Of a DNA stretch of 64,000 nucleotides, positions 15,260 to 43,284 are shown piece after piece. The notes beneath the pieces were generated by a model. That model was not told the origin of the DNA. It saw nothing but the letters and a program-made list of their open reading frames with translations, and made no database searches. This DNA comes from an uncultured Thermoleophilaceae bacterium. Its GTDB lineage: Bacteria > Actinomycetota > Thermoleophilia > Solirubrobacterales > Thermoleophilaceae. The stretch spans positions 187,834-251,833 of the forward strand of contig CAVTEX010000005.1 of NCBI GenBank assembly GCA_963733655.1, written 5' to 3'. The position numbers and the translations under genes are program-made. Within the stretch, counting starts at the first letter, position 1. Every line of letters starts with the position of its first letter.

Positions 15260-16436
15260 GTGGCGAACGTACCTGACCAGCAAGAGCGATCGGTGCTTCC
15301 GCCGCCCGACCCGCCCTTCCGCGGCGAGATCAATGTGGCCTTCGCGGACTCGACGCCCGATTTTCCCGAGCCGCTGCGAGCGCCGGAGGGCGCACCCAAT
15401 GTGCTCGTCATCGTCGGCGACGACATTGGCTTCGGGCACATGGGGGCGTTCGGCGATCATGGACCACGGCGGTATCCGCCGCCAGTTCCATCACCACATC
15501 GACATCACCCCGACCATCCTGGAGAGCGCCGGCGTGCCCGCGCCGATGCGCGTCAACGGCGTCGACCAAGAGCCGATGGAGGGCGTGAGCATGCTCTACA
15601 CCTTCGACGACGCGGAAGCGAGGGACCGCCACACGACGCAGTACTTCGAACTCACCGGCACCCGTGCCATCTACCACGACGGCTGGTGGGCCGGCACACG
15701 CCACGGCCAGGACGGCCTCACCGCCTCGGCCGGCACCGTGCCGTTCGACCAGGACGTCTGGGAGCTCTACGACATGACCACCGACTTCGGCCACGCCACC
15801 GACCTGGCCGCCGAGCACCCCCAGAAACTCGCCGACCTACAAGCCCTCTTCGACCGCGAAGCCCGCAAGTACAACGTCTACCCACTCGCCGACAACATCC
15901 TCGCGCTGCTGTCCGCCGAGCGCCCAGGACTCTTCTCCGGTAACAAGGCCAGCTACCGCCCCGGCACGGTCCGGATCCCCGAAGACGCCACCATCAACAC
16001 CAAGAACCGCTCGTTCACGCTCACCGCGGAGGTCGAGACCAACGGCAACGCGGCAGGCATCCTCGTCACCGTCGGCGGCGAGACCGGCGGCTACGCACTC
16101 GTGGTACAGAACGCCAAGCCCACCTTCCACTACAACTGGCTCGGCCGCAAGCGCTACACGATCACCTCCGCACAGCCGCTGCCGAAGGGCCAGTGCACGA
16201 TCCGCTTCGACTTCGCCTACGACGGCGGCGGTGCGGGCAAAGGCGGCACCGGGACGCTGTCGGTCAACGGCAAGCAGGTGGGCGAAGGCCGTATCGACAA
16301 GACCGTCCCCGTCGTCTTCTCAACCGACGACACCTTCGATGTCGGTGAGGACTGGGGAACGCCAGTCGCGCCGACCTACCAACCGCCGTTCAAGTTCACC
16401 GGCACACTGACCCAGGTGACGATCGAAGTCACCTGA
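15260..16436 (+). pseudogene. arylsulfatase with the catalytic core deleted (N-terminal ~65 aa joined out of frame to the C-terminal ~320 aa)
   Basis: Frame of ORF 14966 gives ...SVLPPPDPPFRGEINVAFADSTPDFPEPLRAPEGAPNVLVIVGDDIGFGHMGAFGD. At ~15455-15470 the reading switches to ORF 15156 (HGGIRRQFHHHIDITPTILESAGVP... to the end). The Cys/Ser-x-P-x-R region and most of the sulfatase fold are missing. Confidence 0.75.
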
Positions 16437-16542
16437 CCTCCGCTAATTGCGGAACCGCGGCAGCTGACTCAGAACGAGGCCGAGAGTGCCTCTTCGTAAT
16501 GCAAGGGAGCGTCTCCGCCGAGACGACTCTCGACCAAATCGT

Positions 16543-17112
16543 TCATCGCGCACGCTCGTAGACCATGACCACGACGCCGTCGCTGCCGACGATGCGCGAC
16601 TCCCTGAGCCGCATCGGCTTCTTGTCGGAGGTCGCGCCGAACACTCGCTTGCCCGTACCGAGGACGACAGGGAAGACCATCAGGTTGACCTCGTCGACGA
16701 GGTCGCTCTCGAGCAGCTCGTGGACGAGCCGGTTTGAGCCGGGCACCTGGATCGTGCCGTCAAGCTCCTGCTTCAGCTTGGCGACCTGAGTCGTGGCGTC
16801 GCCGCTGTCGAGGACCGTGGTGTTGTTCCACTCGGCGTCCCCGAGGGTCGTGGAGACGACGTACTTCGGCATCGAGTTGAACTTGTCCGCGAATTCGCCC
16901 TCGCGCTCGGGCCAGGCGCCGGCGAAGCTCTCGTAGGTGCGGCGGCCGAGGAGCAGTGCGTCGGCCTCGAGCGTCTCGTCGAGCTTGAACTGGTTGCCGT
17001 CCTCGCCTCGGTCGAACTCGAAGCTCCAGCCCGGGTACTTGAAGTCCTCCCCTCCGGGGGCCTCCATCACCCCGTCAAGAGACGAGAATTCGGTTACGAC
17101 GATCTTTGCCAT
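16543..17112 (-). CDS. dihydrofolate-reductase-family protein (RibD C-terminal domain type)
   Basis: 189 aa. MAKIVVTEFSSLDGVMEAPGGE...LLLGRRTYESFAGAWP...VPGSNRLVHELLESDLVDEVNLMVFPVVLG. Confidence 0.85.
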   Translation of the reverse strand: MAKIVVTEFSSLDGVMEAPGGEDFKYPGWSFEFDRGEDGNQFKLDETLEADALLLGRRTYESFAGAWPEREGEFADKFNSMPKYVVSTTLGDAEWNNTTVLDSGDATTQVAKLKQELDGTIQVPGSNRLVHELLESDLVDEVNLMVFPVVLGTGKRVFGATSDKKPMRLRESRIVGSDGVVVMVYERAR

Positions 17113-17274
17113 CGGATGCTCCTTTCAGCTCGGTTGCGGGTGGTGCACTCCAGACGGGTCGGAGCACCTTTCGTATATAGCGTCGAATCAGCGGTCCCGA
17201 AATCGACACGGCGCAAAGGACACTTTCGCGCCCCGAGCGGAGCGAGGGTGTGCGAAAGGAAATTTGCCGGACAG

Positions 17275-17366
17275 GACCCGCGGCCACGGCGGCGCCCGGC
17301 CACGGCGTCGTCGTCGTTGTACATGTGCGGCTCCTCGATATGTACCAGCACCTCCTTGCCCTTCCG
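17275..17366 (-). pseudogene. relic copy of the rne 3' end (direct-repeat copy A)
   Basis: 17298-17366 is ~90% identical (62/69) to 18101-18169 inside rne. Minus-strand translation ...GKEVLVHIEEPHMYNDDDAVAGRRRGRG compares with rne ...GEEVLVHIEEPHMYNDDDAVAKLDG...NGRRRRRGRRGGRG. Confidence 0.7.
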
Positions 17367-17452
17367 ATTCCCCCGGGCCGACAGGGTCGTGGGGCGCGCC
17401 AGTGGTGGGCCGGTAGCGTCCGCCGCGACATCGACGGACACCAGGAGGCCCC

Positions 17453-17800
17453 ATGCCCTACATCGAAGGCTTCGTCGCGGCCGTGCCGACCGCCAACCGC
17501 GAGATCTACATCGAGCAGGCCAAGCAGGGCGCCGAGTACTTCAAGAACCTCGGCGCCACCAAAGTGATCGAGTGCTGGGGCGACGACGTCCCGCGCGGCG
17601 AGGTAACCGACTTCTTCCGGGCCACGCAGGCCAAGGACGACGAGACCGTCATCTTCAGCTGGATCGAGTACCCGGACAAGGCGACCCGCGACGCCGCCAA
17701 CGAAAAGATGCGCGACGACCCGGAGATGATGAACATGGAGATGCCCTACGACGGCAAGCGGATGTTCTGGGGCGGCTTCGAGCAGGTGGTGAGCGGCTAG
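17453..17800 (+). CDS. DUF1428 family protein (E. coli YbaA-like)
   Basis: 115 aa. MPYIEGFVAAVP...KVIECWGDDVPRGEVTDF...VIFSWIEYPDKATRDAANEKM...PYDGKRMFWGGFE aligns along its length with YbaA as I recall it. Confidence 0.85.
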   Translation: MPYIEGFVAAVPTANREIYIEQAKQGAEYFKNLGATKVIECWGDDVPRGEVTDFFRATQAKDDETVIFSWIEYPDKATRDAANEKMRDDPEMMNMEMPYDGKRMFWGGFEQVVSG

Positions 17801-17866
17801 GCCGGCGCGTCCCCACGCCGCCCCGCCCGCCGGTGGCCGGCAAAGCACACGTTTGCGCCGAGAGCC

Positions 17867-19777
17867 CTACTCCGAAGCCGCCCCCGCCTTGCGTCTGCGG
17901 CCTCGGCCGCCGCGGCGGCCGCGCCGGCGGCGGCGGCCGTTGGAAGCGCCGTCCTCGCCGGCCGCCGTGATCAGGCCCTCGGGCGGGTCGACCATCGAGG
18001 CCTGGGCCGCGCTGCGGCCCACCTTCTCGATTCGCACGAGGGTCTTCTCCCCCACCAGCGGCGCCGCCCCGAAGACCGACACCACGTAGCCGTCCAGCTT
18101 GGCCACCGCGTCGTCGTCGTTGTACATGTGCGGCTCCTCGATGTGGACGAGCACCTCCTCGCCCTCGCGGAACGGCAGCGCCCGCTCCTCGACCTCGTCG
18201 CGCGTGCCCTCGAGCACCACGTCGAAGTAGTCGATCGGCAGCGCCTCGGTGCCCTCGAAGTGGAAGTGCTTGCCCGTCTCGGCCTCGATCTCGTGGATCG
18301 GCCCCTCCACGCCCGTGGCCGCCGACCAGGATCGAGGCCACGCTCGGGATGCACCCTGATCAGGAAGGCCGGCGGGTCGGGACGCTCGGCCAGCCAGGTC
18401 GCGCAGCCAGCGGTCGACCTCGATCGCCACCGTCTCCTCGGAGAGCACCACGCCCTCGCCCTCGCACGTCGGGCACGGCTTGGTGATGATCTCGCGCACC
18501 CCGTCGGTCACGTTCTGGCGCGTCATCTCGACCAGCCCGAGCGGGGAGATCTCGACCACGTAGGTCTTGGTGCGGTCCTCGTCGAGCGACTTGCGCAGCG
18601 TCTTGAGCACCGCGTCGCGGTTGCGCGCCCGCGACATGTCGATGAAGTCGATGACGATGATGCCGCCGATGTCGCGCAGGCGCAGCTGGCGCACGACCTC
18701 CTCGGCGGCCTCGAGGTTCGTCTTCGTGATCGTGTCCTCGAGCTTGGCGCCCTTGCCGCGCCCGGTGAACGAGCCGGAGTTCACGTCGATGACCGTCATC
18801 GCCTCGGCGTAGTCGATCATCAGGTAGCCGCCGCTCGGCAGGTCCACTCGCCGCTTGAGCACCGAGAGGATCGCCTCCTCCACGCCGTAGCGCTCGAACA
18901 GCGGCTCGTCGCTGTCGTCGTAGAACTCGAGCCGGTCGAGCAGCTCGGGCGCGGTGCGGTTGAAGAAGGACTGCAGGCGGTGGTGCTGCTTCTCGTCGTC
19001 GACGATCGCCTTCTCGAACTCGCCCGAGAAGATGTCGCGCGCGACACGCACCGACAGGTCGGCCTCCTGGAAGGCCATCGCCGGCGCCTGCGTTTCCTTC
19101 GCGCGCTGCTGCAGCACGTCGTGCAGCTTGTGGAGGTACTTGATCTCGCGCTCGAAGTCCTCGCGCGTGGCGCCCTGCGCAGCGGTGCGGACGATCACGC
19201 CGCCCTCGCCGAGATCGGCCTTGGCCGCGGCGCGCCGCACGCGGTCGCGCTCCTTGTCGTCCAGCCGGCGTGACACTCCCACGCCCTCGCCCTGCGGGAC
19301 GTAGACCAGGTAGCGCCCGGCGATCGAGATCTGCATGGACAGCCGCGGCCCCTTGGTCTTGAGCGGGTCCTTGACCGCCTGGACGAGGATCTCCTGGCCG
19401 GGCTTGAGCAGCTCGGTGATGCGCTTGCCCTTCTGCCCGCGGCCACCGCGGCCGCGGCGGGCCACCTCCACGCCCGGGAAGACGATGTCGTCCGCGTGCA
19501 GGAAGCCGTTCTTGTCCAGGCCGATGTCGACGAACGCCGCCTCCAGCCCGGGCAGGACGTTGTCGACCTTGCCCTTGTAGACGTTGCCGACTATGGAGCG
19601 GTTGCCCTTGCGCTCGATATAGAGCTCGGCTACCCGCCAGTCGTCCTGTTTCTGATTGCTCTGGTTTTTCTTACTGCCGCGCCCCCGGCGCTGGGCGCCC
19701 TGCGGGCTGCCCTCCGATTCCAGGATCGCGACTCTTGTTTCGCCTCGGTCTACCGAGACGAGCAACTGCTTTCTCAA
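17867..19777 (-). CDS. rne: Rne/Rng-family ribonuclease (RNase E/G); three closely spaced apparent frameshifts at ~18300-18390
   Basis: 636-aa ORF. S1 domain (IVGNVYKGKVDNVLPGLEAAFVDIG), catalytic core (GGYLMIDYAEAMTVIDVNSG...IGGIIVIDFIDM), CPxCxGxG zinc link and an RG-rich tail. TTG start 22 nt after the rodA stop. Confidence 0.9.
   Translation of the reverse strand: MRKQLLVSVDRGETRVAILESEGSPQGAQRRGRGSKKNQSNQKQDDWRVAELYIERKGNRSIVGNVYKGKVDNVLPGLEAAFVDIGLDKNGFLHADDIVFPGVEVARRGRGGRGQKGKRITELLKPGQEILVQAVKDPLKTKGPRLSMQISIAGRYLVYVPQGEGVGVSRRLDDKERDRVRRAAAKADLGEGGVIVRTAAQGATREDFEREIKYLHKLHDVLQQRAKETQAPAMAFQEADLSVRVARDIFSGEFEKAIVDDEKQHHRLQSFFNRTAPELLDRLEFYDDSDEPLFERYGVEEAILSVLKRRVDLPSGGYLMIDYAEAMTVIDVNSGSFTGRGKGAKLEDTITKTNLEAAEEVVRQLRLRDIGGIIVIDFIDMSRARNRDAVLKTLRKSLDEDRTKTYVVEISPLGLVEMTRQNVTDGVREIITKPCPTCEGEGVVLSEETVAIEVDRWLRDLAGRASRPAGLPDQGASRAWPRSWSAATGVEGPIHEIEAETGKHFHFEGTEALPIDYFDVVLEGTRDEVEERALPFREGEEVLVHIEEPHMYNDDDAVAKLDGYVVSVFGAAPLVGEKTLVRIEKVGRSAAQASMVDPPEGLITAAGEDGASNGRRRRRGRRGGRGRRRKAGAASE
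18101..18169 (-). repeat. direct-repeat copy B (within the rne coding sequence), partner of 17298-17366
   Basis: GGCCACCGCGTCGTCGTCGTTGTACATGTGCGGCTCCTCGATGTGGACGAGCACCTCCTCGCCCTCGCG, with 7 mismatches to copy A. Confidence 0.8.
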
Positions 19778-22891: not shown

Positions 22892-23479
22892 TCACTGCCC
22901 CGGGCTTCCCAGACCGCGCAAGCCGAGTGGGCCGGCCTCTCGATAGGGACGGCGGCGGGCGCGCGCCGCCAACGGGTCGACGGCCAGCACCGGCCGCAGC
23001 ACGCGGCGGCAGAGCGCGAACACCGGCAACGCGATCAGCGTGTTGAGCAGCACCGTGACGACCATCTCGCGGAGCACGAGAGGGCTGACCGTCGCGCCCA
23101 CGTCGAGCATGAACGACACACCGGCGAAGGCGACCACCCAGGCGGCCGTGGCCAGCGCCCCCACTGCCAGCGGCATCAGCCCGTGGCTGCGGTCGCGCAT
23201 CTCCCCGAAGCGCCCCACCCCGTAGCCGACCGCCGTGAGCACGAGCGACGAGGCGCCCATGGTCGCTCCGCTGAGCAGGTCGAGCAGGAAGCCGGCGGCG
23301 AAGCCGACGGCGCAGCCGGACAGAGAGCCTCCGTAGAAAGCGGAGGCGGCGACCACGAGGACCACCACATCGAAGCCGCCGCCGAGGATGGTCATCTGGC
23401 TGAGCGTGGAGAGCTGGAGCACGACAGCCAGCACCAGCAGCAGGCCGACGCGCACGAAGGTGCCGGGAACGAGCCTCAC
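22892..23479 (-). CDS. mreD: rod-shape-determining protein MreD
   Basis: C-terminal 195 aa of track ORF 22892..24019, starting at in-frame GTG 23479 (VRLVPGTFVRVGLLLVLAVVLQLS...). Five hydrophobic helices, positioned between mreC and pbp2. Confidence 0.75.
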   Translation of the reverse strand: MRLVPGTFVRVGLLLVLAVVLQLSTLSQMTILGGGFDVVVLVVAASAFYGGSLSGCAVGFAAGFLLDLLSGATMGASSLVLTAVGYGVGRFGEMRDRSHGLMPLAVGALATAAWVVAFAGVSFMLDVGATVSPLVLREMVVTVLLNTLIALPVFALCRRVLRPVLAVDPLAARARRRPYREAGPLGLRGLGSPGQ

Positions 23480-24392
23480 GGCGTGACCACTCCGGCGGTC
23501 TGTTCGTTGCGCGGCCTTGCGCGTGAGCACCTGCACGATGTCCAGGCGGCGCAGGTCGGCGAATGGCTTGAGGTGCACGCGCTGGTAGATGTCGACCTCG
23601 TCGAGGTCCACCTCGCTCACCCGGCCGATCGGGATGCCGCGCGGGAACAGCGAGTCGATCCGGTTCGTCCTGAAGCCCGACGTCACGACCACGGCGTTCT
23701 CGGTCACGCGGCCGCCGTGGACGAGGTCGAGGAGCAGGTCGCGCGGATCTCCCACCTCGGGGCGCACCACTCCGGCGGCGCCGGCGGGCATCACCTGGGC
23801 GCCGACTCCGACCGAGGCGTCGGTGATCAGAGTGACCGTCGCGTTTCCGCCGGTCACGCTCGTGACCTTGCCGGCCAGGCCTCCGGTGGCCGGACCGGAA
23901 TCGTCAGCGGCGGCCGCGATCACCGGCTGGTTGACCCGCAGCCCGTCGTCGGAGCCCTTGTCGATCTTGACCGCCGAGTACCAGACGTTGGGCGAGCGGG
24001 CGATCACGCGTGCCGCCACCGGCTCGGTGCCCTGCGGGAAGCCCTCCTCCTTCGACGAGCCCCACGAGACCCTTGAGCTGGCTGGCGTCGCGCTGGGCGG
24101 TGCGAGCCTCGGCGACCTCCTTGGTCAGGCGGTCGACCTCCTGCCTCAGGGCCTCGTTCTGGTCCTTGGCGTCGACCGTGTCGCCGACCCAGCCCACCAG
24201 GTCGCGCGCGGGCTTGAGCGCCCGGCTCGCGCCGGTCTCGATCGGTGCGAAGGTCTCCTGGGCGCCGCGCTGGAGCGCGTGGAAGAAGCCGCCGCCGGAC
24301 TCGCCGAAGTAGGCGGTCAGGATCGCGATCGAGAGCGCGACGAATACGGCGAGGGCGGCTCGCCTCCTGCGGATCGTCTTGCGGTCGTACAT
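23476..24392 (-). CDS. mreC: rod-shape-determining protein MreC (apparent frameshift ~24055; 3' end uncertain)
   Basis: ORF 23904..24392 gives the TM anchor plus coiled coil (ENEALRQEVDRLTKEVAEAR...QLKGLVGL). After a 1-nt slip it continues as SSKEEGFPQGTEPVAARVIARSPNVWYSAVKIDKGSDDG... in ORF 22892..24019. Confidence 0.8.
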
Positions 24393-29382: not shown

Positions 29383-32008
29383 GGCGAGCCCTCCAGGCGC
29401 CGCAGTGCCTCGCGGTACTCGTCGAGCTTGCGGCGCTCCTCGTCCACCACCTCGGGCGGGGCCTTGGCCACGAAGCCCTCGTTGGCGAGCTTGCGCTCGG
29501 CGCGCTGGATCTCGGCGCGGAGCTGCTCGCGCTTCTTGTCGATGCGGCGCAGAGCCTCGTCGGCGTCGAAGGCCTCGGAGGGCAGCACCTGCACCGCCCC
29601 GCCGGGGATCGGGACGCGTGGCAAGCACGTCGCCGTTCTGGGAGGCGTCCACCCACACGAAGCGGGCCAGCCGCGCGAGCTGATCACGCAGTGCGTCGTA
29701 GCCCTCTGCGGCCAGGCGCCCGCGCACCGGTGCGCTTGGCTTGGCGCTCACCTCGTCGCGGTAGCGCCGCAGCGCGGTGACCGCCTCGATCAGGCGGCTC
29801 GACCTCGGCTTCGGCCGGCTCGTCAAAGCGCGAGGGGTCGGCCTCGGGCCAGTCCGCCACCGCCAGCAGGCCGCGCTCGCCCGGCATCAGGCCCCAGATC
29901 TCCTCGGTCACGAAGGGCATCACGGGGTGGAGCAGGCGCAGCGTGCGCTCGAGAGCCCACAGCAGCACCGCCGAGACCTCGGCGTTGTCCTCCTCGTAGA
30001 GACGGGGCTTGGCCAGCTCGAGGTACCAGTCGCACAGCTCCGACCAGAACGCGGCGTAGAGCTCGAGCGTCGCGGCAGAGAAGCGAAAACCGTCGAGCAT
30101 CTCGGTGGCGCGCTCGGTGTGGCGCTCCAGGCGGGAGACGATCCAGCGATCCTCGACACTGCGCCCGGCCCGCGGATCGGGCTCCACGTCGGCTGCGCGC
30201 AGCAGGATCAGGCGCGAGGCGTTCCACAGCTTGTTGGCCAGGTCGCGGCCCTGCTTGACGCGCTCCTCGTTGAAGCGCACGTCCTGCGACGAGGACATCG
30301 CGAGCAGCCCGAAGCGCAGCGCATCCGCGCCGTAGGCCGGGAACTCGCCGCCCTGTTCGAATACCGGCGGTCGCGGCCCGCCGTGGATCAGCTCAGAGGG
30401 GTCGATGCCCGTGCCGAGTGACTTGGACATGCGCCGCCCGTCCGGCGCCTGGATCACCGAGTGGATGTTCACGTCCGAGAACGGGATCTCGCCGGTGAGC
30501 TCGACGCCGAACATGACCATGCGAGCCACCCAGAGGAAGATGATGTCGCGCGCCGTGGAGTTGACGTCCGTGGGATAGAACGCCCGCAGCTGCGGCGTTT
30601 CGGCGGGCCAGCCGAGCGTGGCGAACGGCCACAGTCCCGACGAGAACCAGGTGTCCAGCACGTCGGGGTCGCGCTCCCAGCCCTCTCCCTCCGGCGCGCG
30701 TCTCGGCCACGTGGGTCTCGTCACCGCGGTACCAGACGGGCAGCTGATGCCCCCACCACAGCTGGCGGGAGATGCACCAGGGACGGATGTTCTCGAGCCA
30801 GTTGAGGTAGACGCCGGTCCACGGCTTGCCGGGGTGGAACTCGATCGCCCGTCCTTCACCACCTCGATCGCCGGCGGGGCGAGTTGGTTCATGTCGCAGA
30901 ACCACTGGAGGGAGATGAGCGGCTCGATCCGGCGGCCGGAGCGATGCGAGTGAGGGACGTCGTGCTCGAAGGGCTGCGTCCCGGAGATCAGGCCCTCCGA
31001 ACGGAGGTCGGCGACCACCGCCCGCAGCGCCTCGTCCACCTCCATCCCGCGATAGCGCTCGGGCGCGGAGTCCGTGATGAGTCCGTCCTCCCCGATCACC
31101 GTGACCTCGTCGAGCCCGTGCGAGCGGCCGACCTCGAAGTCCGCCGGGTCGTGGCCGGGGGTGATCTTCAGAGCGCCGGTGCCGAACTCCGGATCCACAT
31201 GGTCGTCGGCGATGATCGGGAGCCGCCGGCCCACGAGCGGCAGGATCGCCGTCTCGCCGATCAGCCGTGAGTAGCGCTCGTCGCCGGGGTTCACCGCGAT
31301 GGCGGTGTCGGCGAGCATCGTCTCCGGGCGGACGGTCGCCACCGTGACCGAGCCCGAGCCCGACTCGAGCGGGTAGTCGAGCATGTAGAGCGTGTCCTCG
31401 ACCGTCCGCTGCTCGACCTCGAGGTCCGAGATCGCGGTGCGCAGGCCGGGATCCCAGTTGACCAGGTAGTTGTCGCGGTAGATCAGGCCCTTCTCGTACA
31501 GGCGGACGAACACGTGCGTCACGGCTCGCACGTACTCGTCGTCCATCGTGAAGCGCTCGTCCTCGTAGTCCAGCGAGGCGCCGAGCGCCTTGAACTGGCT
31601 CACGATCGTGTCTCCATACTCCTCGCGCCAGCGCCAGACGCGGCGGATGAACTCCTCGCGGCCGATCTCCTGCCGGCTCGTGCCCTGGGCCTCGAGCTGC
31701 TTCTCGACCTGGCGCTGGGTCGCGATCCCGGCGTGGTCGGTGCCGAAGATCCACTTGGCGCGCCGGCCGCGCATGCGGGCCACGCGAATTAGGGCGTCCT
31801 GGATCGAGGCGTTGAGCGCATGCCCCATATGGAGGTTGCCGGTCACGTTGGGCGGCGGAACGGCGATCGAGTAGTTCTCGTCGGCGGTGCCCTCCGGCTC
31901 CGGGTCGAAAATGCCCGCCTCCTCCCAGCGCGCAAAGACCCGGCCCTCCACCTCGGCGGGCTCGTAACGGGTGCGCTCCTCGAGCGTCTTCAGACGATCG
32001 TCGGCCAT
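29379..32008 (-). CDS. valS: valine--tRNA ligase, four apparent frameshifts (~30855, ~30703, ~29795, ~29625)
   Basis: [15 protein letters not shown] (HIGH) and MSKSLGT (KMSKS) in ORF 29684..32008. The missing segment [40 protein letters not shown] is in ORF 30393..32018. The C-terminal coiled coil [34 protein letters not shown] is in ORF 29379..29687. Confidence 0.95.
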
Positions 32009-32097: not shown

Positions 32098-32766
32098 TTA
32101 CGCCGGAAGCCCCTCGATGAACTCCACGAAGCGGCGCGGGTCCCGCAGCGGCGGTCCATGGCCGAAGCAGACGAGCTCCGGCTCGAGCGGTGCCAGTTTC
32201 CGCGCCGAGCGCCGGTTCTCCTCCGGGTCGGCGGTGAAGTAGGTCTTGGGCTCGTTGAGGCCGCGGACGCCCGTGACCACGTTGATTGCGTTGAGCACGT
32301 CGCCGATGATCAGCACGCGGTCCGACTCACGCCAGAAGACCACGTGGCCCGGCGAATGGCCCGGGGTCTCGATCACTCGGAACCCGGCCACCTCGTCACC
32401 CTCGCGGAGCACGCGATCGACGTTGCGGCCCGGACCGACCCAGTAGCGCATCGCCAGGCGGTTGAAGGGATGCGGAGCCTGGCTTTCGGCGATCGCCTCG
32501 GGACGCTCCGCCAGCTCCACGTCTCCCCGGCCGACCCAGAACGGGATCCGAAGCTTGCCGCAGACCTCGTCCGATGCGCCCTGATGATCGGGATGCGCAT
32601 GGGTGAGCGCGTGGGCGTTCACGGCTCTGCCCTTCAGCTGGCCGAGGATCCGCCGCCCGGCCCGCCGGGTGGCGGCGTCGATCAGCACGTCCTCGACGAG
32701 GTAGACATTGATGGCGTCCGGAGGAAAACCGCGTAGCTGCCACACCCCGTCGGCCAGCTGCTTCAT
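32098..32766 (-). CDS. MBL-fold metallo-hydrolase
   Basis: 222 aa. LTHAHPDHQG motif, ...TPGHSPGH..., ...GHG. Sits 16 nt downstream of the recombinase-like gene. Confidence 0.9.
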   Translation of the reverse strand: MKQLADGVWQLRGFPPDAINVYLVEDVLIDAATRRAGRRILGQLKGRAVNAHALTHAHPDHQGASDEVCGKLRIPFWVGRGDVELAERPEAIAESQAPHPFNRLAMRYWVGPGRNVDRVLREGDEVAGFRVIETPGHSPGHVVFWRESDRVLIIGDVLNAINVVTGVRGLNEPKTYFTADPEENRRSARKLAPLEPELVCFGHGPPLRDPRRFVEFIEGLPA

Positions 32767-32782
32767 GGGTTGCGACCCTAGA

Positions 32783-34181
32783 TCATCGCTTCGGCCTCCG
32801 GTAGCCCGCGGCCGACTGGACGCTCGAGGGACGCCACTTCTGTCCTCCCCGCAGGGTGGGTACGCCTTCCTCGTTGAGTGCGTCGGCGATGGCCTGGAGG
32901 GTCATCCCCTCGGCCCGCATCTCCGCGATTTGCTCCTTCAGTGGTGGAACGTCCCGGACCGAGGGACGGCTGATCGAGCCCCCCTTCGCGCGTGCGGCCG
33001 CGAGACCCTTGCGCGTCCGCTCGCCGAGCCGCTGGTGCTCCCAGCCGCTCACCGAGACGATCACGTTGGCCGCCTTGCGTCCGGCCGGCTCGGCGGTGTC
33101 GATCCGATCCTGCAGCGAGACGAACCGCCCCCCGATTCGGCCGATCGACCTCAGGGCGCTGCCGAGTCCCGTCACCACCGGACTCAACTGCGGCAACGAC
33201 CACACGATCACGCACGAGGCCTCACCCGATTCCACGCGCTGCAGCGTGTGAGCCAAGCCCGGGGGGTTGGCCCGTGCGAGACGTTGCCCTTCGGCTTCGG
33301 TGACCATCTCAACCAACTGCCAGCCCCGCTCCTCGCATGCGGCGGAAATGGCCTCGCATCTGCTGCCAGACGTCCGGCCGCCCGCCCAGTCCGGAGCTCA
33401 CGTAGCCGATCGCCTTCACCATCTCCCGCTGCTTCGGCTTCTCGGGTACCCGGCGGCGTGGGTGACCGCTGGTCACCTGAGCCCGCCGTCGAACGGGCGC
33501 CGGAACCTCGGCGCCTCGATGTAGCGAGCGGTTCGTCTTGCCCTTGCTCAGCGGCGTCGCCCGGCCTCGAAGCGCTCCCACGAGCGCTGATCCCAGCAGC
33601 AGCGGCAGCACCAGCGCCAGCATCAGCTCCGGTTCAACCTCCTCCTCCTGTCCAGGCGCGGCCGCATCGGCGATCGAGGCACCAACGCCGGCCGGCTGCC
33701 GGCTGCGCTTGATCTCGACGGTCGGCCTGTCCGGCTTGCTGTTTGTGCTCCGGACCGGCTGCAACGCGGGCCGGCGAGCGGCGGCCATGAGACGACCCGC
33801 GGTCTGACGTCCGACGATCCCGTCGGCCGCGACGCCCGCGGCCCGCTGGAATCGAATGACGCCGGCCTCGGTGAGAGGCCCGTACAGGCCGTCGATGGGT
33901 CCCGGGCGCTTGCCGAGCCGGGTCAGCAGCCGTTGAAGCGCGGCCACGCGCCGTTTCTCGACCCCGACTTTTCTCGGCGCGGCCGCCGGGATCCAGTAGC
34001 CGGCGCCACGCGCGAGCGGCGGGATCGCATCCCGCGTGATCGGGGCGAGGGCGGTGCGGAACTCGGCTGTGTCGCCGGCAGTGGCCGCGAAGCCGCTGGC
34101 CGGCAGCAGAGTCAGGACCAGCACGGCCATCAGGGCCACCAGTCCGGCCCGGGCGAGGCCCAAGCCATATTTCCTTTGCAT
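32783..34181 (-). CDS. signal/anchor + PG_binding_1 domain + TM helix + catalytically degenerate serine-recombinase (resolvase)-like domain with C-terminal HTH; one apparent frameshift ~33375
   Basis: ORF 33309..34181 carries a hydrophobic N-terminus, VAALQRLLTRLGKRPGPIDGLYGPLTEAGVIRFQRAAGVAADGIVGRQTAGRL and TM LMLALVLPLLLGSALVGAL. It then runs in frame, with no stop, into MVKAIGYVSSG... Continuation EAISAACEERGWQLVEMV...DRIDTAEPAGR...ERTRKGLAAARAKG...MTLQAIADALNEEGVPTLRGGQKW is in ORF 32783..33316. Confidence 0.6.
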
Positions 34182-34252
34182 GGTTACTCCTCATCGAGCG
34201 ATTGGCCCGTGTGCGTCCGGCACACGGGCAGGCGTGGTCGAGCCCGGTGGGG

Positions 34253-36373
34253 CTAGCCAGGCCGCTCGATGACGGCGACGAACGCCGTGGGGCGCCAGGG
34301 CGCCGGCGCGTAACGCAGGCGCCGGCTGTGGCGCAGGGCGGCGAGGGCCGCCAATGAGGCGAGAAGCGCGAAGAGGGTGCTGAAGCCGACGCCGGATCCG
34401 CCGGCGGACGCGCCGCCGGAGCTGGGCGCCGGAGTCGGCGGGCTCTGCGGGCCGCCGGCCGTGGGAGCCGATGATCCCCCGCGGTGCGGCAGGATCTCCG
34501 GCCAGCGTTGCGAACGGATGTGCGGCGTTCGGCGCAGCGAAGGGCGATGCGGGGGCCGTGTCGGGGCTGGCGGTGGCGCCCGAGGGGTTCACGGGATCCG
34601 CGGCGTTCGGGACGCCCGCGGCGGACCTGGGGTCGGCCGGAGCCGTGAGCGGGCCGGGAGCTGCGACGCCCGCTTCACCGGGAGAGGGCGCTGTGCCCAG
34701 GGGCGGAGACCGGCGCCGCCGCGTCGCCGCGCGAAGCCGGAGCTGCACTGCCGCCGGGGCCCTCGCCGCTGGGATCGCCCGTCGAGGGGAGCAATGACGG
34801 AAGCGATTCCGTGGCCGGCGTGAGGATGGTGCCCAGCGGCGGCAGCGCCTGTCCGATGCCGCCCGCGATCGGTGCGACCGACATCGAGAACGGGCGCCAG
34901 GGCTCCGCTGACGGGCTGCAGCACCGGCCCGATGAGACCACCCGTCTGTTGGAGCACGGGGCTGAGCAGCCCGCCGGCGGCGCCCGTCACGGGGGCCAGA
35001 AGATCATCGGCAGTGTCGGCGACCGGCGCCAGCAGGCCGCCCGCCGTGTCGGCCACCGGGGCCAACAGCTCGTCCGGCGCGTGTCGAGCGACCGGCGCGA
35101 GCAGGTCACCGGCCGGTGTCGGCCACCGGCGCCAACAGCTCGCCCGCCGCGTCCGCGACCGGGGCGAGCAGGTCGCCGGCGGTGTCGGCCACCGGCGCCA
35201 ACAGCTCGCCCGCCGCGTCGGCACCGGGGCCAGCAGGTCGCCGGCGGTATCGGCCACCGGCGCCAACAGCTCGTCCGTCGCGTCCGCGACCGGGGTGAGC
35301 AGGTCACCGGCGGTATCGGCCACCGGGGTGAGCAGCTCGTCCGCCGCATCGGCCACCGGGCTGAGCAGCTCGTCCGCCGCATCGGCCACCGGCGCCAGCA
35401 GCTCGTCCGTCGCGTCGGCCACCGGGCTGAGCAGCTCGTCGGTCGCGTCGCTCAGCGGCGCGACCAGGTCGTCCGAGGCATCGGCCGCGGGCGTGAGAAC
35501 GTCGTTTGCGGTCTCGGCAAGAGGAGCGAGGAGGTCGTCAGTCGCGTCGGTCACCGGTCCCAGCGCCTGGTCAGCGACGTCGGTCAGGGGGGTCAGGGTC
35601 TCATCGACCGACTCGGCGACGGGCGTCAGGACCGGGGCGGTGGCCTCGGTGAGCGGCGCCAGCAGCTCGCCGGTGGCCTCCGTTGCCGGGGCGACGAGGT
35701 CTGCGGCCGGCTCCGTCAGCGGAGTCACGACGTCCTCGGCGGTGTTGGCCAGGGGCGCTGTGACGTCATCGGCGGCCTCGGTCGCGGGCACCACGAGCTC
35801 GGTTGCCGTATCGACGAGCGGAGCGACCGGCAGGTCGGGGGTCGCGATTGGGGCCGCGGGGACCTCGGCGGTTTCCTCGGCGATGGCCGCGGGCGGCTCG
35901 TCGCCGGCGCCGGTAACCGGGGTGAGCGCGTCCAGGGCGTCGGCGGCCGTCTCGGTGACCGCGGCCGGTGGGGGAGCGGGCGGCTCAGCTGGCGTGGGCA
36001 GCTCAACGGGCGCTGCCGGCTCAACGGGAGCCGGGGGCTCAACGGGAGTGGGCGGCGCCGGCTCGGCGGTGGGCGTTGGCGGGGCCGGGGCGGCCGGGGC
36101 GGGCGCCGGGGTCGCCGGCGGCGGCGCGGGTGCGGGCGGCTCTGCCGGCGGTGGCGCCGGCAGAGCCTGGGTGGCCTGCTGGACGACCTCCGGGACGACC
36201 CCCACCGGGTCCGGCAGCGAGGGCGTCGACACCCCGGGAAGTTGTGCCGCGGCAGTTGGGGCCCAGGCCGCCAGCGCTGCGCCCGTGACGGCGGCGACGG
36301 CGGCCACCCGTCGGAGGCCGGTCTCCCGGCCGCGGGGTCTGCGGCGAACGATGCTGAGGGCTCCCTGGTTCAT
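34253..36373 (-). CDS. secreted, C-terminally anchored repeat protein: signal peptide, Pro/Ala linker, ~30 acidic 11-residue repeats (PVADxxDELLx), Gly/Pro/Ser region, TM helix and short basic tail; several apparent frameshifts
   Basis: ORF 34589..36373 (MNQGALSIVRRRPRGRETGLRRVAAVAAVTGAALAAWAPTAAAQ..., then repeats). Tail reconstructed from ORFs 34675..34941 and 34191..34748 plus own translation ending ...GGSGVGFSTLFALLASLAALAALRHSRRLRYAPAPWRPTAFVAVIERPG* (stop 34253-34255). Confidence 0.7.
34890..35820 (-). repeat. 33-bp in-frame tandem repeat array (coding the 11-residue repeats)
   Basis: Plus-strand unit about GTCGGCCACCGGCGCCAACAGCTCGTCCGTCGC. It is most regular at 35000-35450 and degenerates toward 35820. 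Local 1-nt indels turn some units into RRASCWRRWPTP-type off-frame copies. Confidence 0.85.
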
Positions 36374-36542
36374 GGTGCCTATCGGTGATCGACTCTCGAC
36401 CTACCCGGACCGGCCCTCGCTCGGGCACGCGTACGCAACTAACTTGAATCAGTTTCCCGCAATTTGCGACTTTTGGGCGCCTCGTAAGCTGTGCAGATAT
36501 ACGCAACTCGTCACCGCCAGCCCGACCTCGATAATCCACGAG

Positions 36543-36903
36543 GTGTCCCCGGCGACCGAGGCCGAGCTGCTCCGAAGGGCGAAGACCCGCCTGGACCGGC
36601 TGGACTTCTATCCCGAGCCCGTGCGCATCGACGGCGTCCGGATACGGGTCACCCCGTGGCTCTTCCGCATCCCCGGCTTTAAACGCTTTCGCGGGTACGC
36701 CACCCGCCAGAACATCTGGCTCAAGCACAGTCCGCCCGGACGAACGTCTGATCGCGCACGAGCTGTGCCACGTCTGGCAGCTCCAGCACCGCCCGCTGCG
36801 AGTCTGGCTCTCGTACGCCCGGCCCTCGACCTTCAGCGCCGACAGGACGGCGTACCGCGCCAACCGCTACGAGATCGAGGCGCGCCGCGCGGCGGACTCG
36901 TGA
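36543..36903 (+). CDS. small HExxH protein (DUF4157-like zinc-metallopeptidase-fold motif), one apparent frameshift ~36729
   Basis: GTG 36543: VSPATEAELLRRAKTRLDRLDFYPEPVRIDGVRIRVTPWLFRIPGFKRFRGYATRQNIWLKH. After a 1-nt slip: VRPDERLIAHELCHVWQLQHRPLRVWLSYARPSTFSADRTAYRANRYEIEARRAADS* (HELCH at 36757-36771). Divergent from the repeat-protein gene. Confidence 0.55.
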
Positions 36904-38316: not shown

Positions 38317-39669
38317 ATGCGCAAGGTTCGCCTGCTGCCGGTCGCCGCCGTCGCATTGCTGCTCGTGGGGTGTGTGGGCGAGCGCCCGGAGGACCCGGTC
38401 GTGCTGACCGGCGCCGAGCTGCCCCGGCTGGCCGGCGCCGCGCCGGACAAGGTGATCGCCTTCCGCTGGCTGGGCGACCGCTGGGACCAGGTGCCGGTGC
38501 AGGTCGACGAGCGCGCGCGGGTCGACCTCGCCAAGCCGAAGAACGCGGCGGCGGTGGGCCAGACGTTCGTCACCTACACCGATCCCGCCACCTTCACCGG
38601 CCCCGACCCCAACCCCGGCGTCGACGCAGACGACGAGGTGGTCTTCATGGGCATCGACGGCGCCCTCGAGGCTCCCGCTGGCCAGTCACCACCGGGCGTG
38701 GCCGCCGGGACCGGCACGAAGGTCAGGATCTTCGACCGCGCCGGCGAGCCCACGCCGGCCTGGATCTACCTGTTTCGCCAGACCGGCAACCTCGATCAGG
38801 CGGCCGGGCGGCCATATGTGGACTACGACTTCAACCTGCTCTCGGGGGACTACAAGACCACCTACCGGCTCGGCGCCGGGCCGAATCCGGAGAACTCAAC
38901 CGCGAGCACCGCGTTCTACTCGCACCACTTCTCCGACCGCTGGGTGGACGACTCGCTGCGGATCACTGCGGGCACGGCCACGGGCGTGGACATCCTCGAC
39001 CGCCACAAGAACCTGTTCGCACCCGGCACCTGCGTGCGCACCGAAACCACGTTCTCGAACGGCGCCGGGGCGATGATCGCGAACAAGAGCGGCCCGGTGC
39101 GGGCGATCCGGTCCTACATCGGAGCCAACTCCGGCGTCTACACGCACCGCGAGCACCTGTTCTACGAGCGCCGGCAGGACATCACCACCTTCCTGCGCGT
39201 CCACGCCATCCCCGGAGTGATGGACTTCTTCGACTACTCCCCGGCCGCCTCCGGGATGACCTACCGCCACGACAGCGACTCCCGCTCCTTCCCGGTTGAC
39301 GGCGTGCCTGACTCCCCCACGGCCGGTCCGATCCGTTGGGAGACGATGAACGGCCCCCAGGGCTCGCTCGGGATCGCCCACACCGTGACCTCCGATGTGC
39401 CCGGGCTCACCTCCACCTCCTACTACCTCGACAAGCAGACGCCCGCGGGCGGCGCCGAGACCCAGTGCACCGGCGACGGCTCGGCCTACGGATCAAGCGG
39501 CCCGCGCATCGCCCAGGCGCTCCCCAACACCGATCCCACGATCGGGGCGGCCAACAGCCTGTCGACCACACGCCACCTGTTCTACGGCGCCCCCGGGAAG
39601 GCCGTGGGGCCGGACGAACTGGAACAGGTCACGGTGCCGCTCCAGACGACACAGACGCCCTGGCCCTGA
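38317..39669 (+). CDS. lipoprotein of unknown function
   Basis: 450 aa, intact. Lipobox signal MRKVRLLPVAAVALLLVGC. The remainder has no motif I recognise. Lies between clpX and clpP on the opposite strand. Confidence 0.75.
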   Translation: MRKVRLLPVAAVALLLVGCVGERPEDPVVLTGAELPRLAGAAPDKVIAFRWLGDRWDQVPVQVDERARVDLAKPKNAAAVGQTFVTYTDPATFTGPDPNPGVDADDEVVFMGIDGALEAPAGQSPPGVAAGTGTKVRIFDRAGEPTPAWIYLFRQTGNLDQAAGRPYVDYDFNLLSGDYKTTYRLGAGPNPENSTASTAFYSHHFSDRWVDDSLRITAGTATGVDILDRHKNLFAPGTCVRTETTFSNGAGAMIANKSGPVRAIRSYIGANSGVYTHREHLFYERRQDITTFLRVHAIPGVMDFFDYSPAASGMTYRHDSDSRSFPVDGVPDSPTAGPIRWETMNGPQGSLGIAHTVTSDVPGLTSTSYYLDKQTPAGGAETQCTGDGSAYGSSGPRIAQALPNTDPTIGAANSLSTTRHLFYGAPGKAVGPDELEQVTVPLQTTQTPWP

Positions 39670-40422: not shown

Positions 40423-41831
40423 TCAGGAGCCTGGAGTCCAGATCTCGCCGGAGCTTTGGGCCGCTCCCTCCTCCTCCTTGTCCGGCGTCCAGAGCTTGTC
40501 CCGTGCGGCGGCCTTCTCGGCCGCGATGGGCTTGGCGTGCTCCACCAGCAGGTCCACGGCCTTGCGCATCGCGATGTCCTCGCGCAGCGCCTCGTCGGCC
40601 CCCTGGGAGCGCGCTCGCTTCAGGGCGCGCTTGAGCTGCTTCTCGGACGCGTCGGGGGGAGCGGCGGCTCGCAGCGCCTCGTTGACCTCTTCGTCGGAGA
40701 CCTCGATCCCCTCCGCATCGACGATCGCCGACAGCACCGCCTCGCGCTTGAGGGCCAGCTCGGCGTCGGGCTCCGACTCCGTGGCGAGCTCCTCCTCGGT
40801 CTTTCCGGTCATCTCGAGGTAGCGCGCCGGATCCACGCCCTGCGCCTCGAGCCGGCGTGCGGTCCGGTGCCACATCTCGTGAGCCTTCGAATGGACGAGA
40901 TCGTGGGGCACCTCCACGGTGGCCTGGGCCACCACGGCGTCCACCGCCGCCTCGCGGAACTCGCTCTCGATCGAGCGCTCCTCTGCTTCCGCGAGCCGCT
41001 GCTCGATATCGGAGCGCAGCTCGTCGAGCGAGTCGTAGCCGCCGGCCTGCTCGGCCAGCTCGTCGTCGAGCTCCGGCAGGGCCTTCTCCTTGACCTCCTT
41101 GACGTCCACGTCGAAGACCGCTTCTCGGCCCGCCAGATGCTCGGCCTGGTAGTCGTCGGGGAAGGTCACGGTCACCGCGCGCGACTCGCCCGCGCGAGCG
41201 CCCTGGAGCTGCTCCTCGAAGCCAGGGATCAGCCGGTCCGGAGCCCAGCTCGGCCACGTGCCCCCGCGCCTCGCCGCCGGCGAAAGCCTCGCCGTCGAGA
41301 CGGCCCACGAAGTCCATGACGAGGAAGTCTCCTTCGCCGGCCTCGCGGTCGACGTTCTCGAGCGAGGCGAGGGACTCGCGCACGCGCTCCAGCTCGGCCT
41401 GCACCTCGTTCGGGTCGGGCGACGGCTCGCGGCGCCCGACCTCCACGCCCTTGTACTCGGCCAGGCGCGCCGGGGGCACGATCCCGACCTCGATCGAGAA
41501 GCCGAGCGAGGCGCCCTGCTCGGGCAGGTCGGTGAGATCGATCTTGGGATCGCCGACGGTGGTGATCCCGGCCTCGTGGATCGCCTGCTCGTACCAGCCC
41601 GGGAAGCCCGCGGCGCACCGCCTCGTCGAGCACGGCCTCGCGGCCCACCTGGCGGATCACGACCTGGGCCGGCACCTTGCCCTTTCGAAAGCCGGGCACG
41701 CGCATCTCGCGGCCGAGTTCGGAGGCGGCGGTCTCGAGTTCGCGCTCGAGCGCGGCACTCGGCACCTCGACCTCCAACCGGACACGCGAGTCTCCGAGTT
41801 CCGTGGTCTTCGTGGTCACTGCTGCGGCCAT
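40423..41831 (-). CDS. tig: trigger factor, two apparent frameshifts (~41612, ~41238)
   Basis: N-terminus MAAAVTTKTTELGDSRVRLEVEVP...MRVPGFRKGKVP (ORF 41229..41966 from ATG 41831). PPIase part ...LAEYKGVEVGRREP...DFLVMDFVGRLDGEAFAGGEA (ORF 40385..41479). C-terminal part in ORF 40423..41175. Confidence 0.9.
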
Positions 41832-41990
41832 GAGGGAAATGACGATAGCTTGGCCGCGCGTGAACTCCCTGCGCCGCTCACACGCCGAACGCCTCCAGGC
41901 CTGGGTGGTCACCGGACCGCTCGGGCATCTGTGGAGCGTGCTGGCCGACGTGACGATCCTGCTCACGCGCTACGCGGCGCAACAGCTGCG

Positions 41991-43284
41991 TCAGCGCATG
42001 CTCGCCGGAGCGGGCAGCCGGCCCAGCAGCCGCCGGTAGCCGTCCATCACCGGCCTGGGGAAGTCGCCGTGGGTCTGCGCTGCGCAGCCGCGGCACGCGC
42101 TCGCGGTGGAACGGGCTGTCGCGGTTCTCGTTGTGGCCGATCACGTTCCGGGTGGCGATCCCGTGGCGCCCCTGGAGCATCCGCGTCAGTCGCAGGGAGG
42201 CGGCGCGCTGGCGCCGGTTGCCCATCACCTGGGCGTCGCTCTGCCCGACGTGCTCGATGCCGATCGCGGTGTAGTTGAGACCGACCGTATGGCGGCACAT
42301 GATCGTGGTCGGGACCAGCCCGTAGACCTTGCCGTCGCGGTCGATCACGTAGTGGGCGCACACTCCGGGGAGCTCGCCGAGCTCGGGATCCGGGGCGTCG
42401 GTGGCGAAGTAGTTGTAGACCGGCTGGAAGGTGTCGGTGACGGTGTAATGCTGGACGATCACCTTCGGGGAGCGCAGCCGCCAGTCGTCGATGCCGTAGT
42501 GGCGCCGCGCGTAGCCACGCATCTCCTCACGGCGCTTGGCCGGGAACGGAATCGGCTTGGCCCGCACCCGCTGCGGCGCGATCGCCCGCGCCAACGACAG
42601 CACCGCGCGCGTTTGGCGGCGCACCCCCGCCGCGCCGAGTGCCCCGCCGGGCAGCTCCACGACGAACGCGGAGTCATCCTCGAACTCGTGGTTCTGCCAA
42701 GAGGTCGCGGTTCCGTTGTACGCGGGCAGGCGCCTGCGCGGCAGGCCGCTGCGGCGTGAGTACAGACGCTCGAGCACCGGATCTCCGGCGCTCCTCACCA
42801 CCATCGTGAGCGCCTGGTGGTACCAGAGGGTCACCCGCGGGCGCTCGCGCTCGATGAAGCGCTGCATCACCTCGGTCTCAGGCTCGGATGCCGGGCCCGG
42901 CCCGGATTCGTACACACCGTCCTGCGGGCGCCAGCGGTAGGGGAAGTTGCGATTCAGGTCCACCCCGGCCGCGTTGTGGCGGCTGCCGGCGGCGGCACCG
43001 TCCGGGTTGGCGTCTTCCACGAGCCAGAGCGCCGTCCCGCGTGGAGGCCTGGCCCCGCGCAGCCGCGTGATCACGGCCTTGCCTGCGAGCTCGTTGCCGT
43101 GCACCGCGCCCACCACCATCACCTTCGTGCGGGCGCGCGGGCTGCCCACCCGCAGGGCGCGGATCGGCCGGCCCTGGCCCGAGCGGCCGATCACCTCCCA
43201 GGACGCCTGCGACGCTGTCGCGGGCGCGCCAGGCCCGAGCGAGGCGGCAAGGCTCATGAACAGGGTGCCGAGGAGCACGGTCAC
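41991..43284 (-). CDS. secreted fusion of M14 zinc carboxypeptidase and N-acetylmuramoyl-L-alanine amidase (Amidase_2/PGRP) domains; one apparent frameshift ~42075
   Basis: Signal peptide, VGAVHGNELAG...DANPDG...NRNFP (M14), then CAHYVIDRDGKVYGLVP...VGLNYTAIGIEHVG...VIGHNE (Amidase_2). True C-terminus AQTHGDFPRPVMDGYRRLLGRLPAPASMR* by own translation (stop 41991-41993). Confidence 0.8.

Follow-up and report, generated by a model that had tools for sequence, protein, structure and literature searches.

The clpX-valS interval and its genes

We analysed a window of 64 kb on contig CAVTEX010000005.1 of an uncultured Thermoleophilaceae bacterium, and within it the four genes at 32098..36903, between clpX and valS, a region with a GC content of about 70%. 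Three lie on the minus strand: the gene for a long, secreted repeat protein (Rep), the gene for a membrane protein that joins a wall-binding domain to a degenerate serine-recombinase domain (PGres), and the gene for a metallo-beta-lactamase (MBL)-fold hydrolase. The fourth, divergent from rep, encodes a mini-protein with an HExxH motif (Table 1). The initial annotation, made from these letters without database searches, had presented them as a four-gene accessory module. We recovered all four reading frames as well as the 71-nt and 16-nt gaps that flank PGres, and Pfam searches of the window proteins reproduced each of the domain calls and part of the backbone context (clpP, a Trigger_C fragment, clpX, valS, a Mur-ligase open reading frame (ORF) resembling folC, Maf, mreB, mreC/D and pbp2). 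In Rep the repeats, signal peptide, transmembrane (TM) helix and tail were all present, with about 26 eleven-residue repeats rather than the 30 or so first counted. The grouping of the genes did not survive: judged by comparison with related loci, the real unit is a two-gene Rep-PGres envelope cassette with its own cis elements, conserved and multi-copy in Thermoleophilia, and the MBL and HExxH genes are, on the same comparison, unrelated neighbours.

Table 1. Features of the Rep-PGres cassette and adjoining genes, in window coordinates
Feature	Coordinates	Strand	Basis or remark
Rep, secreted C-terminally membrane-anchored repeat protein, about 706 codons	34253..36373	-	ORFs and frames
Rep signal peptide, ending ...AAWAPTAAA/Q	36242..36373	-	
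Rep repeats, about 26 acidic 11-residue units (xPVADxTDELL), 33-bp tandem array	34990..35824	-	TRF period 33
Rep TM helix	34334..34384	-	
Rep cytoplasmic tail (predicted), 26 aa, RHSRRLRYAPAPWRPTAFVAVIERPG-COOH	34256..34333	-	
PGres	32783..34181	-	Pfam, family alignments, AF2, PDB fold matches; one frameshift near 33380
PGres signal peptide	34083..34181	-	
PGres PG_binding_1	33789..33950	-	
PGres TM helix	33570..33626	-	
PGres inactivated serine-recombinase domain	about 32978..33419	-	
PGres C-terminal helix-turn-helix (HTH)	32786..32908	-	
Structured intercistronic RNA, 93 nt	34178..34270	-	RNAalifold, covariance model R1
Upstream motif 1, TTGCGTATATCTGCAC, candidate operator	36491..36506	-	Conserved block, Rep upstream alignment, 15 cassettes
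Palindrome CGCAAnTTGCG, candidate operator or promoter element, about 85 nt upstream of Rep ATG	36458..36468	.	
Third TTGCGTAC half-site copy, downstream of the palindrome	36431..36438	-	
MBL-fold hydrolase, intact, 222 aa	32098..32766	-	Pfam Lactamase_B
HExxH mini-protein, about 120 aa	36543..36903	+	Frameshift near 36730

Rep and PGres form the conserved unit

Scanning one genome per species, we obtained 78 loci through PGres homology, nearly all from metagenome-assembled genomes (MAGs) of Thermoleophilaceae or Solirubrobacterales; single loci are cited below by L number. Rep and PGres lie between clpX and valS in 24 distinct Thermoleophilaceae species among these loci, across which ClpX is 94-99% identical as against 32-68% for PGres. 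Occupation of the junction in 24 species with such deep divergence argues against a recent island. Comparison with these relatives does not support the suggestion of an accessory module wedged into a conserved junction; as far as the sequences allow this to be read, the clpX-valS cassette is an old, vertically inherited feature of the family.

The pairing extends well beyond this junction. Rep and PGres occur together in more than 50 cassettes, at two to four copies per genome, and a single genome can carry at least four. In essentially every locus, paralogous copies included, the gene directly upstream of PGres is of the Rep type and ends in ...[RH]PG before the stop codon, and the tight linkage noted in the window holds across cassettes. 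Many paralogous loci have Rep and PGres without clpX, valS or the MBL gene, one of them among unrelated housekeeping genes. In L014 the first cassette is followed, some 8 kb farther on, by a second complete one (16327..18295), whose palindrome is at 16327 and whose RNA element occupies 18203..18295; cassettes can thus be tandemly duplicated.

The MBL gene adjoins valS in 10 loci and clpX in 7, while 8 have no MBL gene in the interval; it was never found beside the paralogous cassettes. The HExxH gene is at the cassette only in the five closest loci (L001, L003, L005, L008 and L009), and three HExxH homologues on long contigs (72-76% identity; L080, L081 and L082) have unrelated neighbourhoods with no clpX, Rep or PGres. 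Homologues of these two genes therefore do not co-localise with the cassette across genomes, whereas those of Rep and PGres clearly stay together. A co-transcribed accessory system of all four genes, carried as an island at clpX-valS, would fit the tight spacing in the window (71 nt and 16 nt), the presence of the four genes together in the five closest relatives, and the upstream region with conserved motifs that HExxH shares with Rep. The changing side or absence of the MBL gene, its absence beside paralogous cassettes, the three unrelated HExxH contexts and the depth of divergence at the junction in 24 species all speak against such an island, and we regard it as highly improbable.

PGres carries a catalytically dead serine recombinase

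The frame-corrected PGres has more than 1285 homologues; the few named by organism are from Thermoleophilaceae. Full-length members have 450-480 aa, or reach about 600 aa where a second PG-binding domain is present, and their existence in other genomes confirms that the fusion of PG_binding, TM helix and resolvase proposed for the window is real. In family alignments a signal-peptide-like N-terminus leads into one or two PG_binding_1 domains; next come a TM helix with basic residues after it, a disordered linker, the recombinase-like domain and an HTH. The PG_binding_1 match (PF01471) is strong (E=8e-16, 58.5 bits against a gathering cut-off of 23), and there are sequence matches in the PDB to PG-binding domains; peptidoglycan binding is predicted. 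The TM helix (residues 185-207) separates this domain from the recombinase-like domain and the HTH; given the signal peptide and the positive-inside rule, the PG_binding part would face the wall and the recombinase-like part the cytoplasm. The C-terminus is nearly invariant (...GMTLQAIADxLNxEGVPTLRGGQKWRPSSVQAAAGYRRPKR).

Pfam detects Resolvase (E=4e-15) and a short Recombinase/HTH match (E=2.5e-6) in PGres. The cytoplasmic domain was modelled by AlphaFold2 (AF2) from 44 sequences with a predicted local distance difference test score (pLDDT) above 90, and in Foldseek the model best matched the catalytic domain of TP901-1 integrase (3bvp; TM-score 0.82), then Bxb1, gamma-delta, Tn3, Gin and Sin, with 9iu2, 1gdt and 2gm4 among the matches. 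The predicted structure thus keeps the serine-recombinase fold, including the alpha-E helix and the C-terminal HTH. The catalytic residues are lost in the family alignments, as had been proposed for the window protein. In place of the nucleophile motif GYxRVS, PGres has IGYVSxx, where the Ser position is taken by G, T, A, S or P; the Pfam Resolvase match begins only at profile position 15-19, leaving the Ser-nucleophile motif unmatched; and LDRLGR of Gin aligns to LAQLSP or LPRLSP. The equivalents of R8, D67 and R71 (gamma-delta numbering) are not conserved, and the R68 position is sometimes Arg. We found the full PGres architecture nowhere in plasmid and phage collections; matches there are confined to the recombinase domain and are to ordinary recombinases, at 27-38% identity.

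As its alignments read, PGres is an exapted, membrane-tethered and catalytically dead serine recombinase, predicted to retain the dimerising alpha-E helix. An active enzyme that inverts or excises DNA (the Rep promoter or the repeat array) or mobilises the cassette would be in keeping with the Resolvase and Recombinase matches, with the several copies per genome, with the palindromic sites upstream and with the database name 'DNA invertase Pin-like'. We give this almost no credence, in view of the non-conserved nucleophile Ser and R8, D67 and R71 equivalents, the membrane tether, the mere 35 bp or so between the two palindromes and the absence of the full architecture from the plasmid and phage collections. 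The labels 'DNA invertase Pin-like' and 'recombinase family protein' are probably misnomers for PGres.

Rep is a variable surface protein with an invariant tail

Across cassettes Rep begins with a signal peptide and a Pro/Ala-rich spacer. A hypervariable low-complexity array follows, and beyond a Gly-rich stretch come the TM helix and a tail of 23-28 aa. The signal peptide typically ends in the A-x-A/Q(L/V)P cleavage-type motif, which is conserved across cassettes. Arrays are acidic 11-mers in the window clade and basic, Thr-rich or Pro-rich variants elsewhere. A single-sequence AF2 model of the repeats predicts one continuous helix over residues 81-212 (132 residues; pLDDT 75-89); at a rise of 0.15 nm per residue, about 26 x 11 residues would make a rod of roughly 40 nm. 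The repeats show weak similarity to Pfam Apolipoprotein (E=4.6e-6), far below threshold. A second class of Rep (L045, L030, L031, L035 and L049) has the tail ...VAIVALNERPG and Pro-rich PEPV-type repeats (28-37% Pro) that are not helical 11-mers; the Pro-rich and acidic classes co-exist in the same genomes. The GC content of rep reaches 0.75-0.80, which we considered as a sign of horizontal transfer and then dropped, because the Ala/Pro/Asp-rich repeats explain it.

The tail has the consensus RL.L.P..WR..AFVAVIERPG, which ends exactly at the C-terminus; across cassettes the ending is ERPG, DRPG, DHPG or ARPG, followed by the stop codon. In 49 cassettes the tail residues are 84-100% conserved with synonymous codon variation, with 100% conservation of R(-13), E, R, P and G, for each of which two or three synonymous codons are in use. 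Since the residues are invariant while their codons vary synonymously, the tail is under selection at the peptide level. A homologue search with the C-terminal 98 aa gave only two short matches, its word index being too coarse for such a low-complexity query.

A structured RNA between rep and PGres

The last six Rep codons and the 71-nt gap form a 93-nt structured element. Its helix P1 (AUCGAGCG/CGCUCGAU) closes a three-way junction and draws its 5' strand from the last rep codons; one arm holds the Rep stop codon and the other forms a GC-rich hairpin of 9 bp. On its 3' strand P1 stops 2 nt before the GAGGAG Shine-Dalgarno sequence, the ribosome-binding site, of PGres. In an alignment of 53 distinct sequences, 89% of cells are paired and 13 pairs have changed on both sides; these counts lean towards the structure because the alignment was fitted to the model, and an unfitted MAFFT alignment has 86% paired. 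None of 500 shuffles scored as high, and slid controls were 31-42% paired. One instance of covariation is a synonymous GAG>GAA change that is offset by C>U in the opposite strand. Among the non-standard pairs in the two segments of the GC-rich hairpin, G-U exceeds all others, which points to an element that acts as a sense-strand RNA.

The covariance model built from this structure (R1) has 56 matches, one per cassette, of which 13 lie outside the seed; the window has a single match, with a minimum free energy of -48 kcal/mol and z = -3.9. Rfam 15 holds no family for the element and gave one sub-threshold, unrelated match elsewhere in the region. We asked whether the RNA might mask the ribosome-binding site of PGres until the ribosome reaches the end of rep, in the manner of SecM, and rejected this: over 44 cassettes the median unpaired probability of the Shine-Dalgarno sequence is 0.76 in the folded element and 0.58 when the 5' 28 nt covered by the ribosome are masked, so that the site is already open and becomes no more so. 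A TPR-type cassette (L051, 9537..9660) has two tandem copies of the intergenic GC-rich hairpin (GCACGCGGCGCG..GCGCCCCGTGC).

Palindromes upstream of rep

The palindrome CGCAAnTTGCG occurs once in the window, against 0.11 occurrences expected by chance. It is exact in 29 of 56 cassettes and has at most one mismatch in 48 of the 56, always just upstream of Rep. Ten loci whose partner protein has no resolvase module lack an exact match in the Rep promoter context; CGCAACCTGCG, present in three TPR-type loci, lies outside that context and was not counted. Motif 1, farther upstream, reads TTGCGTATA..GCAC in the window (36506..36491) and is a perfect palindrome, TTGCGTATACGCAA or GCGTATACGC, in other cassettes. 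We also considered an extracytoplasmic-function (ECF)-type promoter, GGGAAAC-N16-CGT, upstream of Rep and dropped it, as it fits the closest group but not the others.

The region has a single match to a sigma-70-like promoter (36508..36535, plus strand, TCGTCA-16-GATAAT), which is directly upstream of the HExxH start and abuts motif 1. The divergent HExxH and Rep genes may share regulatory DNA in the window subclade.

Distant variants of the cassette

Variants from Solirubrobacterales and Gaiellaceae retain the ...[RH]PG ending of the upstream protein, directly before its stop codon, and their partner protein keeps two PG_binding domains and the TM helix. The cytoplasmic module is what changes: in the distant partners (L063, L051, L058 and L059) a LuxR/GerE HTH, Sel1/TPR repeats or a TrkA_C-like domain replaces the dead recombinase. 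The LuxR/GerE HTH, from a Gaiellaceae cassette, is at the position of the resolvase module, and by analogy this swap lends support to DNA binding or transcriptional control as the output of the resolvase-type PGres.

Reading frames and sequence quality

Three of the four genes (PGres, Rep and HExxH) need frame corrections. The minus strand has an intact ORF of 222 aa for the MBL protein, two ORFs in different frames for PGres (32783..33316, with Resolvase and Recombinase, and 33309..34181, with PG_binding_1) and a 594-aa ORF for Rep (34589..36373). The PGres halves are joined only by a 1-nt correction near 33380. The 594-aa ORF turns to arginine-rich nonsense in the middle of the repeats and near its end; at least four compensating frame slips run through rep in the assembly, and the Rep N-terminus is in the same frame as the C-terminal TM helix and tail. 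One correction near 36730 restores the plus-strand HExxH frame.

With at least six frame disruptions within 4.8 kb, the shifts might be real, and Rep, PGres and HExxH would then be pseudogenes of a module decaying in this organism. We think this very unlikely. The essential valS gene (29391..32008, minus strand) breaks frame near 29800 and 29640 and so occupies three frames towards its 3' end; its orthologue in L001 is intact at 877 aa, so that the window copy has two frameshifts. Because valS is affected too, the shifts point to a window-wide problem of sequence quality and not to decay of this module alone. In PGres and HExxH the slips are located at short G/C runs. Frame flips within the repeats are often seen in related loci from MFD-labelled MAGs, whereas L060, a short-read assembly to judge by its contig name (k141), has an intact Rep ORF, as do L004, L006 and L041. 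The frameshifts in Rep, PGres and HExxH are probably assembly artefacts, with long-read MAG assembly as the most likely source.

Neighbouring genes

The MBL protein matches Lactamase_B (PF00753; E=8e-25, 88.4 bits against a gathering cut-off of 22.7) and has the HxHxDH motif as THAHPDH; no NCBIfam equivalog reaches its cut-off, and only weak GloB- or lactonase-like matches were seen. The HExxH protein has its motif as HELCH and matches eCIS_core/DUF4157 (PF13699) below threshold (E=0.004, 15.9-17.6 bits against 22). Its family has at least 593 homologues at 67-95% identity, none of them annotated, scattered over unrelated loci; the few members named by organism are from Thermoleophilaceae. Only in the closest relatives does it share a divergent intergenic region with Rep.

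Elsewhere in the window, a 450-aa ORF (38317..39669, plus strand) lies between clpP and clpX on the opposite strand; its signal is of the lipoprotein type (LLVGC), Pfam gave no match at 1e-5, and strand skews change across it. Just beyond tig, a single ORF (41878..43284, minus strand) is a wall-related fusion of Peptidase_M14 with Amidase_2 (N-acetylmuramoyl-L-alanine amidase). ORF 40423..41175 holds only the Trigger_C part of tig, which may therefore be frame-split as well. MreC and MreD domains share one 375-aa ORF (22892..24019, minus strand), either a natural fusion or an indel artefact.

A candidate regulator of its own surface fibril, and alternatives

We propose, with about even confidence, that PGres is a membrane-tethered one-component regulator of the ToxR/CadC type, which controls its partner surface fibril Rep. 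Rep would be exported by its signal peptide, held by the C-terminal TM helix and the conserved tail, and project a long rod from the cell. The wall-facing domain of PGres would report the status of peptidoglycan or of Rep, and its dead-recombinase module would bind the TTGCG-based palindromes upstream of rep, so autoregulating the rep-PGres operon. The intercistronic RNA may set the ratio of Rep to PGres by protecting the 3' end or by partial termination, with the ribosome-binding site of PGres left open. A DNA-binding output is plausible because the C-terminal HTH is nearly invariant and a LuxR/GerE HTH takes the same position in the Gaiellaceae variant.

Several points weigh against this proposal. 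It stands on sequence and predicted structure, and DNA binding by PGres is putative. The palindrome, at 11 bp, is short for a resolvase-type dimer, and a different factor could recognise it. The TPR/Sel1 and TrkA_C modules of the distant variants imply that a DNA-binding output is not universal, and the shared core may be structural or serve protein-protein contacts. The helix of Rep is a single-sequence prediction; a simple regulator would leave the strongly conserved Rep tail unexplained; and the loci were retrieved through PGres, which places genomes that have no cassette outside the sample.

Alternatively, Rep and PGres might form a purely structural complex, a fibril base clamped to peptidoglycan with no transcriptional control, in which the dead recombinase would serve as a scaffold for oligomerisation or tail binding or as a non-specific tether to the nucleoid. 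What stays constant is the Rep tail, together with the TM helix and PG_binding domains; the cytoplasmic module can be exchanged for TPR/Sel1, which are peptide-binding modules, or TrkA_C; and the pairing of the genes with a structured RNA is compatible with stoichiometric co-production. Nonetheless the LuxR-HTH variant, the near-invariant HTH and a palindrome that only resolvase-type cassettes have all speak for sequence-specific DNA binding, and we consider a structural complex of this sort improbable, if far from negligible. The tail also raises the prospect of a nascent-chain monitor. The Rep C-terminus (...W-x12-P-G-stop, with [R/H]PG) would act as a translation-arrest peptide, stalling the ribosome at the end of rep until the TM helix inserts and coupling PGres translation to that event through the RNA element. 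The peptide-level selection on the tail, with its invariant R(-13), E, R, P and G, is in keeping with this, as are the spacing of 23-28 aa from the TM helix to the C-terminus, the P1 5' strand made of the last rep codons and the likeness of [R/H]-P-G to the arrest motifs RAPG, RAPP, HAPP and RAGP. In known monitors the localisation signal lies more than 30 aa upstream, and the stem-loop on which they act lies downstream (PMC10987492). The Rep motif, however, has no Ala or Gly between Arg and Pro, PGres is not a Sec or YidC component, and its Shine-Dalgarno sequence, open in the folded RNA (0.76), becomes no more accessible on masking (0.58). The tail is similar and not identical to the published motifs and is as such only a lead; arrest at rep seems to us quite unlikely. 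A wider claim would join these elements to the regulator that we prefer: more than 1000 dead-recombinase TM proteins of Thermoleophilia that read the wall, bind DNA and are coupled, genetically and in translation, to a hypervariable surface stalk through the RNA and a co-translational [R/H]PG-stop motif, which would act by arrest or as an insertion checkpoint, would then make up an envelope-to-chromosome signalling system not recognised before. We put this joint claim forward tentatively and expect that it will much more probably fail than hold.

Comparison with known systems

ToxR, CadC and TcpP are membrane-bound one-component regulators, often paired with a second membrane protein (ToxS, TcpH). 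PGres resembles them as a single-pass protein with an extracytoplasmic sensor and a predicted cytoplasmic DNA-binding domain, encoded next to a partner membrane protein and presumed to act on a nearby promoter, for which the palindrome upstream of Rep is the candidate operator. It differs in its reversed topology, with the signal peptide first and the putative DNA-binding module C-terminal; in having no Pfam match to an OmpR-type winged helix and a dead serine recombinase with HTH instead; and in its PG_binding_1 sensor and a partner that is a giant repetitive surface protein encoded upstream. With serine recombinases (TP901-1, Bxb1, gamma-delta/Tn3, Gin/Hin) it shares the predicted fold, the alpha-E helix and the HTH that follows. 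Unlike them, it is truncated after the first HTH of the recombinase domain and preceded by a PG-binding ectodomain and a TM helix.

Proteins with long helical repeats include the hendecad stalk of tetrabrachion, streptococcal M proteins and apolipoprotein-type 11-mers. Rep is like such fibrillar or stalk proteins in its predicted helical rod, 11-residue period, C-terminal anchor and length variation through tandem DNA repeats; it is unlike them in having one proline per 11 residues, in its composition (acidic here, and basic, Thr-rich or Pro-rich in paralogues) and in an anchor made of a TM helix and an ERPG tail predicted to be cytoplasmic, rather than LPXTG. Intercistronic stem-loops set differential expression within the pap, puf and mal operons. 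The Rep-PGres RNA similarly places a stable GC-rich structure after a structural gene, presumably an abundantly expressed one, and before a candidate regulator gene, whereas it is a conserved, family-specific three-way junction whose closing helix comes from the last upstream codons. Among arrest peptides that monitor Sec or YidC are SecM (RAGP), ApcA (RAPG) and ApdA/ApdP (RAPP) (PMC10987492). Rep has a C-terminal [R/H]-P-G, a hydrophobic element upstream and a structured RNA before the next ribosome-binding site; in contrast to these peptides it is a structural protein of 700-1100 aa and not a short leader, its motif is neither RAPG nor RAPP, the next gene is not sec or yidC, and the Shine-Dalgarno sequence is unmasked.

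No Pfam or NCBIfam model covers Rep or HExxH, the PADLOC models of anti-phage defence systems matched none of the four proteins, and literature searches found no description of the cassette. Together with the Rfam result above, this agrees with the initial annotation in finding no described system that matches, even though the unit is now the pair. The Rep-PGres cassette appears to be undescribed and widespread, with an RNA element and a DNA motif of its own.

If our proposal is true, a site-specific recombinase has been exapted as a membrane-tethered DNA-binding module, which would be a new output domain for transmembrane one-component regulators. The cassette offers two testable cis elements, the 93-nt three-way-junction RNA and the cassette-specific palindrome, together with a candidate nascent-peptide motif at the Rep C-terminus that may act on the ribosome or on the partner protein. 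For the Thermoleophilia, an abundant and almost unstudied class of soil Actinomycetota, it would mean an envelope with several fast-evolving surface rods per genome, each accompanied by its own wall-binding partner.

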